Shown: piece by piece, positions 1 through 42,326 of the stretch
Position numbering within the stretch: position 1 is the first letter of the stretch
Layout: the number at the start of each line of letters is the position of its first letter
NCBI GenBank assembly: GCA_965205835.1
Contig: OZ242182.1
Span: 1,852,226 to 1,916,225, forward strand
Direction: 5' to 3'
Length of the DNA: 64,000 nucleotides
Origin: Nitrospinales bacterium
GTDB taxonomy: Bacteria > Nitrospinota > Nitrospinia > Nitrospinales > VA-1
Notes under the pieces: generated by a model
What the model was told of the DNA's origin: nothing
Databases searched by the model: none
What the model saw: the letters and a program-made list of their open reading frames with translations, nothing else
Position numbers and translations under genes: made by a program

Positions 1-108
1 CCACCCCTGTTGCAACTATTGGTCGGCATATTCGCCACTATCGGAGTCATCCGACTGTTCATGTTCGTGGTGGATATTATCGAAGACCGAAAAGAAGGGG
101 AAAGTTAG
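1..108 (+). CDS. 3' end of a membrane-protein gene (partial; start lies outside the window)
   Basis: The frame is open from the window edge to TAG at 106-108. The tail is hydrophobic (LLQLLVGIFATIGVIRLFMFVV). No family recognised. Confidence 0.3.
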   Translation, partial: PPLLQLLVGIFATIGVIRLFMFVVDIIEDRKEGES

Positions 109-7341: not shown

Positions 7342-8823
7342 TTAAAACCTCAGGGCTTCCAGGTTGTTGAGTTTTGGAAAATCCGCCAAGAGGATAATAT
7401 CCGATTCCTTAAGTTTATTGCGGCGAAGATCCAGCTTTTTTAGCCGGGGTAACTTGCCAGAGTTTGCCCAAGAATCCAAGCCTTCCCGGGTGATGGTGTT
7501 GCCCATGGCTTCCAGCTCCTCAAGTTGGCTTAAAGTATCGGACTGAACCAGTGCCTGAAATCCAGAATCGCCCATAGGAATCCCCGAGGCTCTTAGTTTG
7601 ATGAGGCTTTTGAAGTTCACGGAATCCGCTAAAATACGCAGACCTTTTTCTCCCAGATTGTTGCCACTCACATTAAGCTCTTTCAATCGACCGAGATGTG
7701 GAGACCGCGAGAGGGCGAGGATTCCTAACGATGTGATCCCCGTATTTTCCAGATTCAAAACCTCCAATCGCGAAAGATTGGGAGATTCCGCCAGCAAGAG
7801 AAGACCTTTGTCCCCCACTGCATTGCTCATCAAGTTGAAGGATGTCAGGTTTTTGAGAAACTGGGAATTGGCAAGGTCCTGAACCCCATGGTAATCAAAA
7901 TGGTTGTTCCTCAGTGAAAGAGAAACAATCCCGCCCAGTTTTTCGTATTGCGCCAATGAAGCAATATCTTTGTTGTCCAATCTCTGCTCATTAAAGTTGA
8001 GTATATTTTCGACTCTTTTCTTCTCAACCAGAATCCGCGACCGCATGACCCTAAGAGCGGTCTCTCCAGCCCGACCATAATTATTATCCTGCATATAAAG
8101 CTGAACAAGATTATTCAAGTGCTTGGACCCGGCAATGCCCAAAGCTCCAGAGTCACCAATATGATTGGAATCGAGCACCAGAATTTCCAGACGGGTTAAC
8201 GTGGGAGAATGCGCAAGAGTGCGGGCACCCTGATTGGTGATTTGATTCCAGCCTAGGTTCAGTTGTACCAGTTTTTCAAAAGCACCAGCCTGCGCCCAGT
8301 CGGAAAGACTTTCATCGCCAACAAGATTGCGACGAAGGTTGAGAACACGAAGCTTGGAAACCACCGCACCGTCTGGAAATCGGGTCAATTTTCGCTGTCC
8401 CACCTTATTCATTTCCAAATCAATGAATCCAAGGTTCAACAGTGACTGCGACTTCACAAGGCTGAGAGCACCAAAATCAAAAATCTTATTGTTGGCCAAC
8501 TCTAGTGTTTCAAGGTTGGGAAGATTTTTTGAAAGCGCGAGACTCCGGGCTCCCTCCTCGCCAATCTGGTTGGCGTTGAGAACAAGATGCTTGAGCTCGG
8601 CCAGCGAATCCATGTCGGCAAGAACAGTCAGTCCTTCATCGGTGATTTCATTCCAGCTCAAATCCAGTTTTTGAACATGAGATAAATCTTTATTCCGGGA
8701 CAAAAAAACGATCCCCGCATCTCCCATTCGGTCATAGGAGAGATCCAGAACCGGGTCCTTGCGGGTCAATCTATCATTAAGAGTCTGGATAAAGTTCAGG
8801 TCTTTTATTTCATGCCGCATCAA
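7342..8823 (-). CDS. Leucine-rich-repeat protein, ribonuclease-inhibitor (RNI)-like 28-29-aa repeats (downstream part)
   Basis: 493 aa made of about 16 repeats of the pattern LxxLxLxxNxIGDxGAxxLAxSxxLxx. It is contiguous and in frame with ORF 8824..9516. Confidence 0.8.
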   Translation of the reverse strand: MMRHEIKDLNFIQTLNDRLTRKDPVLDLSYDRMGDAGIVFLSRNKDLSHVQKLDLSWNEITDEGLTVLADMDSLAELKHLVLNANQIGEEGARSLALSKNLPNLETLELANNKIFDFGALSLVKSQSLLNLGFIDLEMNKVGQRKLTRFPDGAVVSKLRVLNLRRNLVGDESLSDWAQAGAFEKLVQLNLGWNQITNQGARTLAHSPTLTRLEILVLDSNHIGDSGALGIAGSKHLNNLVQLYMQDNNYGRAGETALRVMRSRILVEKKRVENILNFNEQRLDNKDIASLAQYEKLGGIVSLSLRNNHFDYHGVQDLANSQFLKNLTSFNLMSNAVGDKGLLLLAESPNLSRLEVLNLENTGITSLGILALSRSPHLGRLKELNVSGNNLGEKGLRILADSVNFKSLIKLRASGIPMGDSGFQALVQSDTLSQLEELEAMGNTITREGLDSWANSGKLPRLKKLDLRRNKLKESDIILLADFPKLNNLEALRF

Positions 8824-9516
8824 TCAACCACCAATACGGGGGTAGTCCGTTTTCACTGCATTCATTTCCCGTAACCGTTTGGACTCATTCAAAAGTTCCA
8901 GTCCCTCGGGGTTGATCAGGTTATAAGACAGGTTTAAAGTCTGAAGGTTTTGCAATCCAGAGAGTTCAGCCAAAGCCTGCATTCCCCTGAGACCAATTCG
9001 GTTGGCATCAAGATGCAATTCCTTTAAATTTTTAAGATGGGTCGAGTTTGCCAGGGCTTCCGCTCCAACGTCTCCAATCCGATTAAACGAAAGATCAAGC
9101 TTTTCAAGTTTGGAAAGACTTTTAGAATTTGCCAAAGCCACGGCTCCTTCATCCTCGACTTTATTGGTATATAAACTAAGGTATCGCAACCGGGTCAATA
9201 CTTCAGACTCGGCCAAAGCCCTGGCTCCATCATCGCCGATCAGGTTTTCATACATCCATATCTCTTTAAGCGGCTCAAAAAATTCTGACCGGGCCAATTC
9301 CTCCACACCCAGGTCCTTGATTTTATTGGTATGAATATAAAGGATTTCAATATCAGGAAGTGCGACGTTTTCAGCCAGTTCCATGGCGGTCCCGTTATCG
9401 ATTCCTCTATTGGAAAAATCCAAGGTCTTCTTATCCTTACTCAAACCGCGCTTGACCCATTTTCTGATATAGGAAATATCTTCTGCCATGGCCAGGAACC
9501 AAATAAAAAGTTCCAT
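8824..9516 (-). CDS. Leucine-rich-repeat protein, RNI-like (upstream part, ends at an in-frame TGA)
   Basis: 230 aa with the same repeat type (NKIKDLGVEELARS, NLIGDDGARALAES, NKVEDEGAVALANS...). The stop at 8824-8826 is immediately followed, in the same frame, by the next LRR ORF. Confidence 0.8.
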   Translation of the reverse strand: MELFIWFLAMAEDISYIRKWVKRGLSKDKKTLDFSNRGIDNGTAMELAENVALPDIEILYIHTNKIKDLGVEELARSEFFEPLKEIWMYENLIGDDGARALAESEVLTRLRYLSLYTNKVEDEGAVALANSKSLSKLEKLDLSFNRIGDVGAEALANSTHLKNLKELHLDANRIGLRGMQALAELSGLQNLQTLNLSYNLINPEGLELLNESKRLREMNAVKTDYPRIGG

Positions 9517-35889: not shown

Positions 35890-37017
35890 ATGAAGTGGTT
35901 CGCGGTGAAAACAATTTTTCTCCTGGCTCTTGCCCTATTTGTGAATTATTCCCTCAGCGATGGCACACCACGTAAAAAAACGGGACACCAAAAGATCATG
36001 ACCCCGTTCCCCCAAAACGCCACTATGCGTATTGCCATCGTCGGGGATACCGGAACCGGAGAGCGGGCCTACGCACCGGGATTCTCCGCCGTGCAAAAAG
36101 CCATGCGCGATACCAATCCGGACGCGTTACTGCATCTCGGCGATTTCGTTTACCAACCGGAACCGTTTCCCGACTCCTGCCCGGACCGATACATAGAAGA
36201 AATCAAAAAAACATTGGTCGCCCCCTACCCCCTGCGCCTTTTTGTTGCGGGCGATAACGATCTACTTGCCCATCGAAAAAAGCCGAAGGCTTCGGGTTGC
36301 TGGGATAAAATTGATCCGCTCGATTCCGGTTTTGACAAAACCGCTAAAAGTGCCGCGCGGGATTTTGAAGGCACACGGGTGGTGGGCAACGCATTGATCG
36401 GCGTCATCCATAATTATCCCTGGCAGGACCCTACCGAATGGCTGAAGCCACGCGTTAAAGAAGCGAGAGAAAAAGGGCTCTGGATCATCCTTGCCATCCA
36501 CGAGCCGGCACTCACCACCGCCTGGTATCTGGACAAACGCAACACGGTTCTCAAACAGTTGAATGCCTTAAAACCCGACCTGGTGTTCGCCGGCAACCAG
36601 CACTCGTACGAACGGTTTCATCCCATGATCTCGATAGAGGGCGGTGCATTCAAGGTGATCAAATCGGAACCCGGCAAATACCAAAGCGGGGATGGAACGA
36701 TGCACATAGTTTCAGGCGGCGGCGGGGCAACCTTCAAACCTTTTGCCGATACTCAGAATAAAAAGAAGGGCATCGCGCCAAAAGAGGTGTTCGACGCGCT
36801 GGCAAAAAGGGCATTGATGAATCATTTCGTCACGCTGGATATTTCGCGGGATGTTTTGAAAGGAACGGTCTGGCGGGTCTGCGTGAACGATGATCCCGAT
36901 GACCAACAAAACCCGCGCTGGAAATCGCGAAAGAAATTCTGGGACAACATCCCCCTGGAGTGCGACGACAAGCCTCAAGGCGTAACGGTTTATGAAGAGT
37001 TTGAAATTAATCATTAG
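35890..37017 (+). CDS. Secreted calcineurin-like metallophosphoesterase
   Basis: Signal peptide present, with motifs VGDTGTG, LHLGDFVY, GDND and GNQHSYER. Confidence 0.75.
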   Translation: MKWFAVKTIFLLALALFVNYSLSDGTPRKKTGHQKIMTPFPQNATMRIAIVGDTGTGERAYAPGFSAVQKAMRDTNPDALLHLGDFVYQPEPFPDSCPDRYIEEIKKTLVAPYPLRLFVAGDNDLLAHRKKPKASGCWDKIDPLDSGFDKTAKSAARDFEGTRVVGNALIGVIHNYPWQDPTEWLKPRVKEAREKGLWIILAIHEPALTTAWYLDKRNTVLKQLNALKPDLVFAGNQHSYERFHPMISIEGGAFKVIKSEPGKYQSGDGTMHIVSGGGGATFKPFADTQNKKKGIAPKEVFDALAKRALMNHFVTLDISRDVLKGTVWRVCVNDDPDDQQNPRWKSRKKFWDNIPLECDDKPQGVTVYEEFEINH

Positions 37018-37032
37018 GCGTGGGGCCGACTG

Positions 37033-37070
37033 GCAATATCTTTGATTGGCGAACAATAGTTTATCTCGGC
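37033..37070 (-). repeat. 38-nt dispersed repeat, copy 4
   Basis: Reverse complement is gccgagataaactattgttcgccaatcaaagatattgc. Confidence 0.7.
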
Positions 37071-37359
37071 TTGTTATATTTTTCCGTAGGGGGATGTCCT
37101 CCTCAAGAACCTTGCAAGCGACGGAGCATCTCGCCTGTCATCCGAGTTTGGTTTGCCGTGCTGAGCCTATCGAATAATCATGCCTCGAATGGGTAGAAGA
37201 ATTAGACCTCTTTATTTATTGATTTTTAGTAGAAAAATATTGAAGTTTAAGGAGTGCTATATTTATCTGAAAAAGCAATTTACTTAATGACTGCGACTCA
37301 AGTTTATAATACGATTACCTGTAAACTAGAGTTCTGAAAATGGAAACAAAGACAATTCA

Positions 37360-38625
37360 ATGATTAAAGTTAAGACAATTAAAAAAGAGCTTTTCGACTC
37401 AATTCCGATTGACCCTCTATGGAATATCGGTAAAGAAAAAGAGTTGAAAATGCATAGAATTCATTCATATCCTGCAAAGTTCCCGGCTTTTATAACAAAT
37501 AAAGCAATTGATTATGCAAGAGAAAATAAAATTAAATATAAGCGAATAGCTGACATATTTTGCGGGTGTGGGACGGTGGCATTTGAAGCAAAACGAAAAA
37601 ATATAGATTTTGTTGGTTATGATATTAATCCTGTTGCGACAATGATTGCAAAGGTAAAAAGCCGAAAATACAACAAAAATATTTTAGAAAATTATTATAA
37701 AAAAATTCAAAGTTATTATTTTAGTTTAGATAAAAGGACCAAAGCCCCTGAACTTAAAAATGAACGCTTAAAATACTGGTACAGCACAAAGCAACTAAAA
37801 CAACTTGCATTCTTGAAATGTTCTATTCAGAAAATCCTTCCTTTAAAAAGTATCTATCGTTTATTTTTTTTGTGCGCCTTTTCTAATATTTTAAAACCAA
37901 CTTCTCGCTGGCTCACGAAGTCAATAAAGCCACAAATTGACCCAGGAAAAATTCCTGCAGAGGTAATTCCGGCCTTTAGAGATCAATATCGTTTTATGTT
38001 TTCAGCTAATTCAGAAAGCGATGCCATTTGTAATTCAACGACAAAAATTAAAACTCTCAATTTTTTAGATGAAACAGAAAATCATCCAATTGTTGATACG
38101 ATCATAACAAGCCCTCCATATGTAACTTCTTATGAATATGCCGACCTTCATCAGCTTTCATCACTTTGGCTGGGTTTTGCCAGGGACTATAAGGATTTAA
38201 GAGAGGGGGCGATAGGGAGCCTTCATCACTGTTATGAATATGAAGCAGAACTTAAAAAATTAAATAAAACGGGCAAAAAAATTCATTCTGAATTATTAAA
38301 AAAAGATACTTCAAAGGCAAAATCTGTTGCTAAATATTTTTTAGATATGCAGTGTATTACTAAAAATTGCTTCAAGATGTTGTCAAGAAATGGAATGGCC
38401 CTTTTTGTTATTGGAAATACAGAATACAAAAGAGTACGTATAGATAATGTCCTCCATCTGGCCGAATCCTTAAGAGAAAGTGGCTTTAATGAGATTTTTG
38501 TTACCAAACGAAAAATCAGCAAAAAAATTTTAACACCATATAGAGATAAACGAGGTCGCTTTTCAACTGACGGGAGTGGCCGGAAAGTTTATAGCGAGGA
38601 ATTTATACTGATTGGAAGAAAATAA
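37360..38625 (+). CDS. DNA amino-methyltransferase (motif I ... long insert ... TSPPY; predicted m4C or m6A)
   Basis: 421 aa. Contains HSYPAKFP, motif I DIFCGCGTVAFEA with GYDINP, and motif IV IITSPPY about 185 aa downstream (alpha-like order). AT-rich. Confidence 0.8.
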   Translation: MIKVKTIKKELFDSIPIDPLWNIGKEKELKMHRIHSYPAKFPAFITNKAIDYARENKIKYKRIADIFCGCGTVAFEAKRKNIDFVGYDINPVATMIAKVKSRKYNKNILENYYKKIQSYYFSLDKRTKAPELKNERLKYWYSTKQLKQLAFLKCSIQKILPLKSIYRLFFLCAFSNILKPTSRWLTKSIKPQIDPGKIPAEVIPAFRDQYRFMFSANSESDAICNSTTKIKTLNFLDETENHPIVDTIITSPPYVTSYEYADLHQLSSLWLGFARDYKDLREGAIGSLHHCYEYEAELKKLNKTGKKIHSELLKKDTSKAKSVAKYFLDMQCITKNCFKMLSRNGMALFVIGNTEYKRVRIDNVLHLAESLRESGFNEIFVTKRKISKKILTPYRDKRGRFSTDGSGRKVYSEEFILIGRK

Positions 38626-38630
38626 TTGCT

Positions 38631-40478
38631 ATGTTCAATCTTACCGAGTTAAAAGAAGAAATAGTCCACAATAATCGTTTCGAGAGACGCATAGCAAAAC
38701 TAGTAGCTCAAGGGCAGGAGGTTGGCAGAATTAAGAATGTTGTCGCATCGGCTATTTATAAGATTAAGGATGGGGAAAGTTCTTTTGTTATTTACGGTGA
38801 GCCGCAAAGCGGAAAGACCGAGATGATGATTGCCTTAACAGCCCAGCTCTTAGATGAAGGTCATAAGATAATCATAGTTATGTTGAATGATAGCGTTCAG
38901 CTTCTAAGTCAAAATTTGGAAAGGTTTCAGAGGTCAGGATTGGACCCTTCCCCGAAAAAATCTAGTGAGGTGTTGCCAAGAACGATTAAAATTGGAGAAC
39001 AAAGCTGGGTCATTTTTTGTAAGAAGAATGCCAGAGACTTAGAAAAGCTAAATGACAAACTTTCTCCATTCAAAGGAAAGGTAATTATTGATGATGAAGC
39101 GGACTACGCCACTCCAAATTCTAAAATAAACAAAAAGGAGAAAAGCAGAATAAATGAGCTGACTGAAGAATTTATTGGCTTGAAGGGTATTTATATCGGT
39201 ATTACGGCTACTCCAGCGAGACTTGACTTAAATAGAACCCACAACAATAGCAGTGGAAACTGGATCGATTTCCCCCCACACTCCGACTACACTGGACAAG
39301 AAGTATTTTTTCCTTCATCTGCAGAAAAATTACCATTCTTCCTAACTTTACTGCCAGACCAAGGAGATGATCCTAAATATTTGAGAGGAGCATTATTTAG
39401 TTTTATGGTCAATGTAGCCTATTTGAACTCTGAAATTAATGACAATGAGGAAAATTATTCATTCCTAGTTCATACAAGTGGGAAAAAGGAGGGCCATACG
39501 GGTGATTACAAATTGACCGTTGAAACCTTTAAGATTTTGATGGATAAGGAAAACCCAAAGCATGAGAAATATTATAAGGAATTATGGGAAATAGCTCGCA
39601 AACGTTATCCAAACTTGGAGAATGGGCTAACTAAATACATTATATCAAACAATACCCGCAATAATATTGTTGTGATGAATAGCGATAAAGAAAAAAATAC
39701 GGCAGACAATAGGACGGCTACTGAACCTACCTCTCCATTTACCATTGCTATCGGAGGGAATATAGTTTCTAGGGGGGTAACTTTTAACCATCTTTTGTCC
39801 ATGTTTTTCACACGAGATGTGAAACATAACATACAACAGGATACCTACATCCAAAGGGCTAGAATGTTTGGAGCGCGGAATACATATTTAAAATATTTTG
39901 AACTCACTATTCCTGAAAGCTTGTATTCGAACTGGCAAAGATGTTTTATTTTTCATAGACTCTCTCTTGAATCACGAAGAGCGGGCAATGGAACACCCGT
40001 TTGGCTTGAGGGTAAAAAACTAATAGCTGCCGCACGCACAAGTATCGACAAAGCTAGTGTGGTAATAGACAGTGGTGAGATGAGTTTTGAAATTTTTGAT
40101 TTCAAGGCCAACGAGGTAGATGAAATACTAAACAAGCAAATCGGAAATTTGCAGAAGATCAATACCATATCAGAACTTCTAGGAGATGAGAAACTCCCTA
40201 AATATCTTATTAATTATATCGAAAACTATATGCCTTTAGGCGAGAAGTCCCTAGCACTCCACGCCTCGAAAAGTATTACGGAATATAAAGACGCTATCAC
40301 AGATCAAGAAGCAATTACTCGTACTAAGGGTTTTATAGGCCAGTTTGAACTTGAACCCAAAAAATATCCCGACGCAATTCACCACATTAGAATTCTCTAC
40401 AATGGCGCTAATAAAGCGAGAGTTTTCTATAAGTATAAAGGGAATATAAAATTTTTAAAAACTGCAAATAGAACGTGA
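38631..40478 (+). CDS. SF2-helicase-like P-loop NTPase with a C-terminal Z1 domain
   Basis: 615 aa with Walker A GEPQSGKT, Walker B IIDDEAD and motif III-like ITATPAR. Z1-like core is GGNIVSRGVTFNHLLSMFFTR...QQDTYIQRARMFGARN. 5-nt gap after the methyltransferase gene. Confidence 0.75.
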   Translation: MFNLTELKEEIVHNNRFERRIAKLVAQGQEVGRIKNVVASAIYKIKDGESSFVIYGEPQSGKTEMMIALTAQLLDEGHKIIIVMLNDSVQLLSQNLERFQRSGLDPSPKKSSEVLPRTIKIGEQSWVIFCKKNARDLEKLNDKLSPFKGKVIIDDEADYATPNSKINKKEKSRINELTEEFIGLKGIYIGITATPARLDLNRTHNNSSGNWIDFPPHSDYTGQEVFFPSSAEKLPFFLTLLPDQGDDPKYLRGALFSFMVNVAYLNSEINDNEENYSFLVHTSGKKEGHTGDYKLTVETFKILMDKENPKHEKYYKELWEIARKRYPNLENGLTKYIISNNTRNNIVVMNSDKEKNTADNRTATEPTSPFTIAIGGNIVSRGVTFNHLLSMFFTRDVKHNIQQDTYIQRARMFGARNTYLKYFELTIPESLYSNWQRCFIFHRLSLESRRAGNGTPVWLEGKKLIAAARTSIDKASVVIDSGEMSFEIFDFKANEVDEILNKQIGNLQKINTISELLGDEKLPKYLINYIENYMPLGEKSLALHASKSITEYKDAITDQEAITRTKGFIGQFELEPKKYPDAIHHIRILYNGANKARVFYKYKGNIKFLKTANRT

Positions 40479-40930
40479 TCAAAGAATTTGAATTCTACCA
40501 TGGTGCCGTTCTTGCGAGGCTCGCCCATGCGAATAAGTCGGTTTCCTTAAAGCTTTATACAACGGCTAGCAATTCTTCCTACGTTATTGATGATAAAATT
40601 GGGATATTCATGAAATATTCTTCCAAGCGAATGTCTCCTTGGGGCTTTAGTTTTCTCAAGAGTCATCAGGATGAAATATTAGAAATAAAGAAAGCGATTG
40701 GAGAAGTTTTTCTTTTGCTAGTGTGTCACGACGATGGAATCGTGGCATTAAACTTTGATAAGTTAAAAATTATTCTTGACGAAGTACACGATCAAGTTGA
40801 GTGGATTAGGGTTTCAAGAAGACCTCGAGAAAAATATTCTGTCAGTGGTTCTGATGGAAAATTAAAATTTAAAATTGGTGGGAATGAGTTTCCAAAAAAA
40901 ATATTTAATGCGTTGGGGTTGCAGGAATAA
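40475..40930 (+). CDS. 151-aa orphan protein, translationally coupled to the Z1 gene
   Basis: GTG start overlaps the Z1 stop (GTGA). Same AT-rich composition. No motif recognised with confidence. Confidence 0.6.
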   Translation: MIKEFEFYHGAVLARLAHANKSVSLKLYTTASNSSYVIDDKIGIFMKYSSKRMSPWGFSFLKSHQDEILEIKKAIGEVFLLLVCHDDGIVALNFDKLKIILDEVHDQVEWIRVSRRPREKYSVSGSDGKLKFKIGGNEFPKKIFNALGLQE

Positions 40931-41239: not shown

Positions 41240-42193
41240 TTATGATCCGTTTCTCAGGATCGCGTCTATCTCATCGCAGGTTTTTTTCACATCCCGCGCG
41301 GAGACATCGAGAGCGTCTTGCTCTTCATCGGTCATTTTAAGTTCGATGACTTTTTCGATTCCGTGGATGCCCATCATGACAGGAACGCCGAAGAAAATTC
41401 CACTCCAGCCGTATTCACCTTCCAGATAAGCGGTGCAGGGGAGGATGCGGCGTTTGTCCTGCAAGATCGCCTCGATCATTTTCACCACCGAAGCACCAGG
41501 CGCGTAAAAGGCACTACCGGTTTTAAGCAGTGCGACAATTTCCGCCCCGCCCTTTCGGGTGCGTTCCACCACCCGGGCGATCTGTTCCTGGGTCATCAAT
41601 TCGGTGATCGAGATGCCCGACACAGAAGTGTAACGGGGCAATGGGACCATGGAATCGCCATGCCCGCCAAGGACCATCGCGTCCACATCTACCAGTGAGC
41701 AGCCTAGCTCCAGCGAAACAAAGGTTCGCAACCGGGCCGAGTCGAGTACGCCAGCCATGCCGATGATTTTGTTCTTGGGCAGGTTGCCGGTTTTCTTGGC
41801 CATGTACACCATTGCGTCAAGCGGGTTCGACACCACGATGACAATCGGGTCGCGGGAATGCTCCATGATCTTCTCTGTCACCGATTGCACAATTTTCGCG
41901 TTGGTAGCGAGAAGGTCTTCGCGGCTCATGCCCGGCTTGCGCGGCAGTCCTGCTGTAATGACCACGATATCGGAATTGGCCGTGTCTTTATAATCGTTGG
42001 TCCCTGTCACCAAGCTGTCAAAAACCTGCAGACAGCTCGACTCCTGCAAGTCCAGTGCTTTCCCCTGCGGCACCCCCTCGATGATATCGATGATCACCAC
42101 ATCGCCGAGGCTTTTATAAGCGGCCAACTGGGCCACCGTGGACCCAACCTGACCCGCCCCTACTACCGTGATTTTTCTTCTTGCGCTTGACAT
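41240..42193 (-). CDS. mdh: Malate dehydrogenase (LDH-like family)
   Basis: Contains KITVVGAGQVGST, GLPRKPGMSR and VLGGHGDSMVP. Start at the internal ATG (MSSARRK). Confidence 0.9.
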   Translation of the reverse strand: MSSARRKITVVGAGQVGSTVAQLAAYKSLGDVVIIDIIEGVPQGKALDLQESSCLQVFDSLVTGTNDYKDTANSDIVVITAGLPRKPGMSREDLLATNAKIVQSVTEKIMEHSRDPIVIVVSNPLDAMVYMAKKTGNLPKNKIIGMAGVLDSARLRTFVSLELGCSLVDVDAMVLGGHGDSMVPLPRYTSVSGISITELMTQEQIARVVERTRKGGAEIVALLKTGSAFYAPGASVVKMIEAILQDKRRILPCTAYLEGEYGWSGIFFGVPVMMGIHGIEKVIELKMTDEEQDALDVSARDVKKTCDEIDAILRNGS

Positions 42194-42326
42194 AGCGGTT
42201 CCTCTATTTGATAAAAATACACCTGAAGCAGGCTCCACAGCTTCGGCAGTCGCGAGTGCATGTTATATTCCTACCTTGGCCCTCATGCCCTGCTGAGGGT
42301 ATCACCGCCTCATTTTGCCACGGCGG

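Follow-up and report, generated by a model that had tools for sequence, protein, structure and literature searches.

A small partner of a DEAD-Z1 motor with a predicted Hjc/RecU-like fold as candidate effector of a restriction-modification cassette in a Nitrospinales bacterium

What does a 151-residue protein that no curated library recognises contribute to a cassette whose other two genes encode a DNA methyltransferase (MTase) and a Z1 ATPase? This question is raised by a 64,000-nucleotide stretch of the genome of a Nitrospinales bacterium (contig OZ242182.1, positions 1,852,226 to 1,916,225; hereafter the window), in which the three genes follow one another on the forward strand (Table 1). 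The last and smallest of them encodes the protein examined here, referred to as the small partner (SM). A preliminary description, made from the letters alone, had taken SM to be an unassignable, translationally coupled partner of the Z1 protein, possibly a divergent nuclease or a specificity subunit, and the only candidate for the effector of a restriction-like system. The reading developed below, to which we give about an even chance, is that SM serves as the effector (R-like) subunit, a nuclease whose active site is non-canonical, in an ATP-dependent restriction-modification module of three genes formed around a CglI-type motor.

A small gene coupled to a DEAD-Z1 motor gene

The SM reading frame opens with a GTG codon that overlaps the stop codon of the motor gene, and re-reading of the sequence reproduced the frame, start and translation given in the preliminary description. 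The gene call of the source genome itself (P0004) comprises 106 amino acids with 100% identity to SM over 70% of its length and begins approximately 45 codons too late; it is truncated, the GTG start within the upstream stop codon having been overlooked. In a protein collection clustered at 90%, 351 homologues of SM were found, the best 120 of which share 55–81% identity with it across 95–100% of the length. The N-terminus MI[KR]EFE is common to all homologues among the matches listed, which validates the GTG start. These sequences indicate that the SM frame is a real gene and not a chance open reading frame (ORF).

A profile search of 1.84 billion representatives returned 894 clusters at 50% identity (E ≤ 1e-3) from more than 10 phyla. 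The best 150 of the 894 representatives are mostly stand-alone proteins of approximately 140–170 amino acids, the remainder being mainly shorter fragments, and none of these 150 is fused to Z1 or to another domain; a single member of 313 amino acids has an extension that holds no Pfam domain. SM itself gave no match at E ≤ 1 in Pfam, NCBIfam or PADLOC, and 70 diverse members gave only scattered single chance matches to Pfam, with nothing consistent. It does match phrog_28860, a family of unknown function, at 1.4e-16, so that the word “unassignable” holds for the curated libraries and not beyond them. As no curated library recognises SM, defence-system finders now miss or mislabel the module.

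The gene directly upstream encodes a helicase-like motor homologous to the H subunit of CglI-type systems. It was matched by the PADLOC model Helicase_II (PDLC03202, a REBASE-derived “Type II helicase domain protein”) at 5.5e-44 over residues 50–504. The motifs GEPQSGKTE (Walker A), DDEAD (DEAD box), TATPaR, GGNIvSRGvTF and TYIQRARMFG, which include the equivalents of motifs III, V and VI, are kept at 80–95% or more among 68 homologues, and the protein thus combines a DEAD domain, a Z1 domain and a C-terminal one with intact ATPase motifs, as the H subunits of CglI and NgoAVII do.

The pairing was examined at 80 SM loci fetched from species-representative genomes of Patescibacteria, Nitrospirota, Bacteroidota, Gamma- and Alphaproteobacteria (Legionella, Pelagibacter, Bradyrhizobium), Verrucomicrobiota, Acidobacteriota, Chloroflexota and Planctomycetota, together with one contig labelled archaeal. 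A Z1 gene adjoins SM in 77 of them, and in the other three the sequence available upstream is shorter than 710 nt. At 73 loci the Z1 gene immediately precedes SM on its strand, and at the four Pelagibacter loci it is divergent. The Z1 stop overlaps the SM start in 62 of the 73, the overlap being 4 nt long at 30 loci, 8 nt at 18, 11 nt at 8, 17 nt at 4 and 1 nt at 2. The pairing holds even for a distant SM of 30% identity carried by a Nostoc plasmid: the two genes stand in reversed order there, and the Z1 product matches the Helicase_II model at 1e-89. Pairwise identities across 50 loci were correlated between Z1 and SM with r = 0.70 and between Z1 and MTase with r = 0.26. The translational coupling proposed in the preliminary description is borne out by these overlaps, and the data support SM as an obligate partner of the Z1 NTPase. 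They also suggest that SM physically binds the motor.

The third gene of the cassette lies 5 nt upstream of the Z1 gene and encodes an MTase of 421 amino acids, matched by Pfam PF01555 in two stretches (6.5e-12) and by PADLOC MTase_II (4.5e-40). A cognate MTase in the same cassette, as in CglI-type systems, is present here and in 67 of the 80 loci (65 detected by tblastn and 2 just beyond the fetched flank), and the loci lacking one are mostly short contigs or have a decayed Z1 gene. Because this linkage is near-obligate, the motor–SM pair is expected to be dangerous to unmodified DNA. Scans of the three-gene cassette with Pfam, PADLOC and NCBIfam revealed no other recognisable nuclease domain, the Z1 protein carrying motor motifs only; SM therefore stays the only candidate effector, as had been surmised.

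In the mechanism that we infer, SM, whose translation is coupled to that of the motor, would bind the motor, probably in dimeric form like Hjc and RecU. On DNA left unprotected by the cassette MTase, the motor would spend ATP to translocate, after which SM would cut the DNA; its active site would be formed by K47, which is invariant, together with two acids near the N-terminus (E4 and E6, on helix 1) and perhaps D87.

Table 1. Features of the cassette, of the predicted SM protein and of related loci. Nucleotide positions are those of the window unless a locus is named; residue numbers are those of SM.
Feature	Position	Strand	Basis or remark
DNA methyltransferase, 421 amino acids	37360..38625	+	N6/N4 amino-MTase with permuted motif order (motif I before SPPY); PF01555, PADLOC MTase_II
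DEAD-Z1 helicase-like motor, 615 amino acids	38631..40478	+	Homologue of CglI-type H subunit; Pfam Z1 2.8e-21, ResIII 1.7e-9
SM, 151 amino acids	40475..40930	+	Predicted Hjc/RecU-like restriction-endonuclease fold plus C-terminal beta subdomain (residues 108–134)
GTGA start/stop overlap of Z1 and SM genes	40475..40478	+	SM start GTG (40475–40477), Z1 stop TGA (40476–40478); translational coupling
Low-GC island carrying the three genes	37071..40930		GC content 0.31–0.39 against 0.52–0.58 in the flanks
Dispersed repeat of ~60 nt, left island border	37008..37073		Dozens of matches in nearly every genus genome searched
SM helix 1	residues 4–17		AlphaFold2
SM strands	residues 25–27, 35–38, 42–49, 56–61		AlphaFold2
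SM helix	residues 62–75		AlphaFold2
SM strands	residues 77–84, 88–93		AlphaFold2
SM helix	residues 94–100		AlphaFold2
SM small C-terminal beta unit, then final helix	residues 108–134 (beta unit)		AlphaFold2
K47, W56	residues 47, 56		100% conserved in 320 SM sequences
G10, P55, G88, G125	residues 10, 55, 88, 125		98%, same set
R52, R115	residues 52, 115		97%, same set
D87	residue 87		95%, same set
Y121	residue 121		93%, same set
C84, F58	residues 84, 58		92%, same set
S49	residue 49		91%, same set
Stand-alone SM, Ralstonia prophage	L090 5995–6432
Stand-alone SM, phage vB_SBP9	L088 178–648
Further stand-alone SM loci	L106–L108

Predicted fold and candidate active site of SM

Two AlphaFold2 models of SM were built, one from 44 sequences (predicted local distance difference test score, pLDDT, 84.3) and one from 124 sequences (pLDDT 92.1; predicted template-modelling score, pTM, 0.88). 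Both have the same architecture with the element order H-E-E-E-E-H-E-E-H (H, helix; E, strand), and in both the helix, three-strand meander, helix and strand of the PD-(D/E)xK alpha/beta core are found. When compared with the Protein Data Bank (PDB) by Foldseek, Archaeoglobus Hjc (2wcw) was the top match for both models at an E-value of approximately 5e-3 (probability 0.99–1.00, template-modelling (TM) score 0.45–0.60); the best TM score of 0.60 came from the second model, with a root-mean-square deviation of 3.6 Å over 110 columns. The runners-up were RecU (1zp7), Pyrobaculum tRNA-splicing endonuclease and the Cas4 protein SSO0001. Members of the Hjc, RecU, tRNA-splicing endonuclease and Cas4 families, or the uncharacterised 3fov, made up 18 of the top 20 matches for the first model and all 20 for the second. 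Matches also came from viral models that carry RecU or Hjc annotations, and Sen15 and the N. equitans structural subunit were among the weaker matches. The models predict a restriction-endonuclease-like fold for SM; the scores are modest, and all meaningful matches share this one fold. The PD-(D/E)xK-like core that the preliminary description had seen in the order of helix and strands is upheld as far as the fold is concerned. No housekeeping family, a match to which the same description had named as fatal to its proposal, appeared in the profile and structure searches.

Residue conservation was counted over 320 SM sequences, of which the strongest positions are listed in Table 1. Acidic residues are frequent at positions 4 (83% of the sequences), 6 (84%), 67 (84%) and 96 (87%). 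At position 45, 96% have an aromatic residue; at position 39, 78% have Asn and 14% an acid. The lack of an acid two residues before K47 (F-M-K), already remarked on for this one protein, is hence a general property of the family, while the earlier mapping of a catalytic set E...D39-D40...K47 fails because D39 and D40 are not conserved. The strand that precedes that of K47 carries N33, S35 and Y36.

These positions can be set beside those of Sso Hjc, in which the canonical residues are E12 in VERN, D42 in PDIIALKNG and E55-x-K57 in ILIEMKSR. The collinear segments of SM are EFEFYHG, SSYVIDDK and IGIFMKYS, the equivalence being drawn from the order and spacing of elements and not from coordinates. 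The helix-1 Glu and the strand Lys of Hjc have counterparts in E6 or E4 and in K47, the latter lying in a hydrophobic strand as in Hjc; at the Asp position SM has Ser35 or Tyr36, and IFMK against IEMK puts an aromatic residue in place of the metal-binding Glu. The structural alignment with Hjc spans the first ~100–110 residues of SM. Unlike Hjc and RecU, SM lacks the Asp/Glu metal ligands and does not belong to their sequence family (no Pfam match at E ≤ 1), two of the four positions of the E-D-E-K tetrad being non-acidic. It also has an extra C-terminal beta subdomain, and it is found in a defence operon with a motor rather than in a recombination context.

A second subfamily of SM homologues was found without a Z1 gene nearby. 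Its members have 145 amino acids and 25–30% identity and occur in Ralstonia P2-like prophages, Burkholderia phage vB_SBP9 and islands, some of them by HicAB. Both subfamilies share acids at positions 4 and 6, H9, G10, Y36, K47, P55, W56, L82-V83-C84, E96, G125, G128 and L130. Since these residues are kept where no motor gene is near, the SM fold appears to have an activity of its own. Confined to the Z1-linked subfamily are R52, R115 and a clear D87; of these, the basic residues may serve contacts with the motor or with DNA.

Several observations weigh against SM being a nuclease effector. The Asp of strand 2 and the (D/E)-x-K of strand 3 that define PD-(D/E)xK enzymes are not found in it, K47 alone being invariant, and the strand before that of K47 has no conserved acid. 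In Hjc, cleavage is abolished when either carboxylate is lost; hence SM, if it is a nuclease, must use a relocated site, for which E4, E6 and D87 are candidates from the sequences. The closeness of K47, E4/E6 and D87 is assumed and not taken from coordinates, and the stand-alone subfamily shows no clear conservation of D87. The fold match is itself modest, with a TM score of about 0.5 and no PDB match at E ≤ 1e-3, and Pfam, PDB and profile searches gave no sequence-profile link between SM and any nuclease family. Intact Z1–SM pairs with no MTase nearby also exist, in Nitrosospira (L049), at two Chloroflexota loci and on the Nostoc plasmid, L069 and L070 being among the loci with such pairs. 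On the other hand, migration of active-site residues is well documented in the PD-(D/E)xK superfamily.

Three further searches may be recorded here. Sequence and profile searches of the PDB with SM returned only Zip2, at an E-value of 0.82. The SM profile was compared with a small YraN/UPF0102 alignment, which had been built from matches to the Hjc Pfam model that were all YraN-type and hence does not represent true Hjc, and gave a probability of 0.13% with no alignment of the core. A direct-coupling analysis of 317 SM sequences, which addressed strand pairing and the nearness of K47 to E6 or D87, yielded mostly gap and truncation artefacts and was discarded. The identity of SM as a tRNA-splicing endonuclease was considered and rejected. 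EndA is a secondary fold match (2zyz, probability 0.91–0.96), and H9, Y36 and K47 are conserved in SM, but they stand in another order and on other elements than the Tyr-His-Lys set of that enzyme; an RNA target is also implausible for the partner of a double-stranded DNA motor.

The replaced carboxylates lead to the main alternative, to which we give distinctly less than an even chance: SM may have the Hjc fold and be dead as a nuclease, acting as a DNA-engaging, sensing or adaptor subunit that recognises a target, a DNA structure or a methylation state. Damage would then come from an unrecognised site in the C-terminal part of Z1, from a host nuclease or from motor action. Both carboxylates of the PD-(D/E)xK strands are indeed replaced, position 45 being aromatic and the strand before it having Ser, Tyr or Asn, and the most conserved residues are basic or aromatic (R52, R115, K133, W56, F58, Y121 and W110), as on a binding surface. 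Inactive members of the fold are known, for example Sen15, Zip2 and ERCC1. Some cassettes also add a nuclease: in L003, a PDDEXK_1 nuclease gene (8512–9276) overlaps the 3′ end of SM downstream, which suggests that a canonical nuclease has been added in some cassettes. A dead subunit is, however, difficult to reconcile with a minimal cassette of three genes that persists in dozens of lineages with no other recognisable nuclease, and with the near-obligate MTase linkage, which implies danger to unmodified DNA. The invariant Lys and the conserved acids, moreover, resemble a remodelled active site.

A related and slightly less likely proposal is that the carboxylates have given way to a conserved aromatic pair (Y36 or S35 with Y/F45), which beside the invariant Lys would form a pocket for reading a base or a structure of the DNA instead of cutting it. 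Unmethylated DNA would then be restricted by a sensor-gated DEAD-Z1 motor, either with no canonical nuclease or through a wholly new kind of catalysis. If this were so, the homologues that stand alone in phages and prophages might act as sensors in their own right, or as decoys poisoning the motor of the host.

It is very improbable that SM stands outside the DNA-acting machinery altogether, as a regulator or antitoxin-like accessory such as a controller or chaperone. SM is small and lies at the end of its operon, and the related subfamily occurs alone in islands beside toxin–antitoxin genes, as an accessory might. The confident fold matches are nevertheless all nucleases of one fold, with no helix-turn-helix or other regulator fold among them. 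SM is conserved across phyla as strongly as the motor, its divergence follows that of the motor, and one cassette (L005) has a separate helix-turn-helix controller gene besides SM.

Target specificity and comparison with known systems

The MTases of the cassettes comprise three PF01555 (N6_N4) lineages, present at 24, 22 and 8 loci, and a C5 MTase in Pelagibacter. Among pairs of loci with motors more than 75% identical, 27% have MTases less than 30% identical. No hypervariable recognition block was found within any of the three MTase lineages. Likewise, no variable recognition region was found in the Z1 motor, whose C-terminal domain is 40–55% identical against 55–70% for the motor core and is not hypervariable, and none was found in SM, along which conservation is uniform; the role of a specificity subunit, once considered for SM, is accordingly not indicated. 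The absence of a variable block together with the exchange of MTases argues against swappable specificity of the Type I or Type III style. With no variable region in the motor or in SM, and with uniform conservation within each MTase lineage, the module probably has one fixed target or a small number of them, as a Type II-like system does, which non-homologous MTases could protect.

This exchange also bears on a further alternative, a split Type III (or Type I-like) enzyme in which the MTase would give recognition and the motor and SM would replace Res. Res subunits combine a superfamily 2 (SF2) ATPase with a PD-(D/E)xK nuclease, as the motor and SM would do together, and the family to which the MTases belong, PF01555, also takes in the Type III Mod proteins. 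A motor and an SM without a variable region also accord with this arrangement: in Type III enzymes such as EcoP15I an SF2 ATPase, a restriction-endonuclease-fold module and a PF01555-type MTase likewise occur with no variable domain in the ATPase/nuclease. Here, unlike in Type III systems, the DEAD-Z1 ATPase and the nuclease-fold module are separate genes, and the variable recognition domain that a Type III MTase carries is missing from the MTase lineages. The same motor/SM clade is found with MTases of less than 30% identity in over a quarter of the close pairs and with a C5 enzyme in Pelagibacter, and a conserved MTase–motor interface is hard to reconcile with such swaps. In CglI, the MTase acts independently (PMC4267653). 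We regard the split enzyme as improbable.

The closest known system is the three-gene M+R+H type represented by CglI, NgoAVII and BceSIV, with the PLD-B3 R subunit replaced by SM. In these systems an R2H2 complex translocates along DNA by ATP hydrolysis and cleaves upon collision, and the motor of CglI requires a separate nuclease subunit; its R protein, of 358 residues, joins a PLD nuclease to a B3-like domain that reads the sequence, and its MTase is independent (PMC4267653, PMC5861437). [quoted passage not shown] The motor is recognised by Helicase_II, and the search with its Z1 family includes Corynebacterium glutamicum. Unlike CglI, the cassette has, in place of the PLD-B3 protein, a 151-residue SM of another, Hjc-like fold that matches neither PLD nor B3 and has no reading domain; the MTase is an amino (N6/N4) enzyme and not a C5 one, the gene order is M-H-SM, and H and SM are translationally coupled.

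Longer Z1 cassettes contain HATPase_c_3, AIPR and DUF4420-type PD-(D/E)xK proteins next to C5 MTases, in a BsuMI-like manner. The module shares with them an MTase-linked Z1 ATPase, and its Bacteroidota relatives also carry HATPase_c_3; it differs in that the motor is of the short H type and SM is a family apart, which matches no NCBIfam or Pfam model, those for PD-(D/E)xK proteins among them. To our knowledge, the only DEAD-Z1 motor restriction systems studied so far are of the CglI type, and all of those studied use a PLD-B3 nuclease. No description of an SM-type partner was found in the literature searched. The DEAD-Z1 motor is, however, far more often paired with a tiny SM-type effector, as seen from the 894 clusters that range from candidate phyla radiation bacteria to Pelagibacter, Legionella and Bradyrhizobium.

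The insertion slot and variants of the cassette

The three genes lie on a low-GC island inserted between a metallophosphoesterase gene (35890–37017) and mdh (41240–42238). Neither SM nor the island was found in the 30 relatives searched, of which 18 belong to the same genus. In seven genomes of the genus, the gap between the metallophosphoesterase gene and mdh is 68–311 bp long, whereas in two others (L104/G074 and L105/G092) the slot is filled with other cargo, 6.9 or 10.5 kb in length. One of these relatives has a C5 MTase, HATPase_c_3 and HNH there, and the other an AAA ATPase, an S8 peptidase, DUF3800 and HNH. The slot is a variable hotspot of defence type in the genus, and the cassette is strain-specific. 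The dispersed repeat of ~60 nt that borders the island on its left looks similar to repetitive extragenic palindromic (REP) elements and could be a recombination target for the hotspot.

Several loci depart from the three-gene arrangement. Six Bacteroidota loci (L020, L034, L037, L041, L043 and L063) have enlarged cassettes. In the fullest of them (L037, L041 and L043), the MTase is followed by a protein of 544 amino acids (in L037 and L041), a HATPase_c_3 protein (739 amino acids), an unknown protein of 455–471 amino acids, Z1, SM and an unknown protein of 544 amino acids. In L020 and L034, an MTase and a HATPase_c_3 protein (821–825 amino acids) stand directly before Z1 and SM. The unknown proteins of the enlarged cassettes gave no Pfam or PADLOC match. 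In the Pelagibacter variant (L060–L062 and L073), the C-terminal domain of Z1 is only 22–24% identical, and integrase and HNH genes are close by. Four other loci (L052 of Legionella saoudiensis, L057, L030 and L084) have an intact SM next to a truncated or interrupted Z1 gene, which in L052 is adjoined by an rve-type insertion sequence; no MTase was found in L052, L057 and L030, and L084 has a weak match (26%) approximately 1 kb away. These four appear to be decaying copies of the module.

As for the stand-alone subfamily, the homologue of phage vB_SBP9 is located at the end of a lytic-type phage genome, and a stand-alone homologue might work as an effector by itself or serve the phage as a decoy for the motor of its host. 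In the Ralstonia prophage, the stand-alone SM gene is followed by an ORF of 262 amino acids that has no family match.

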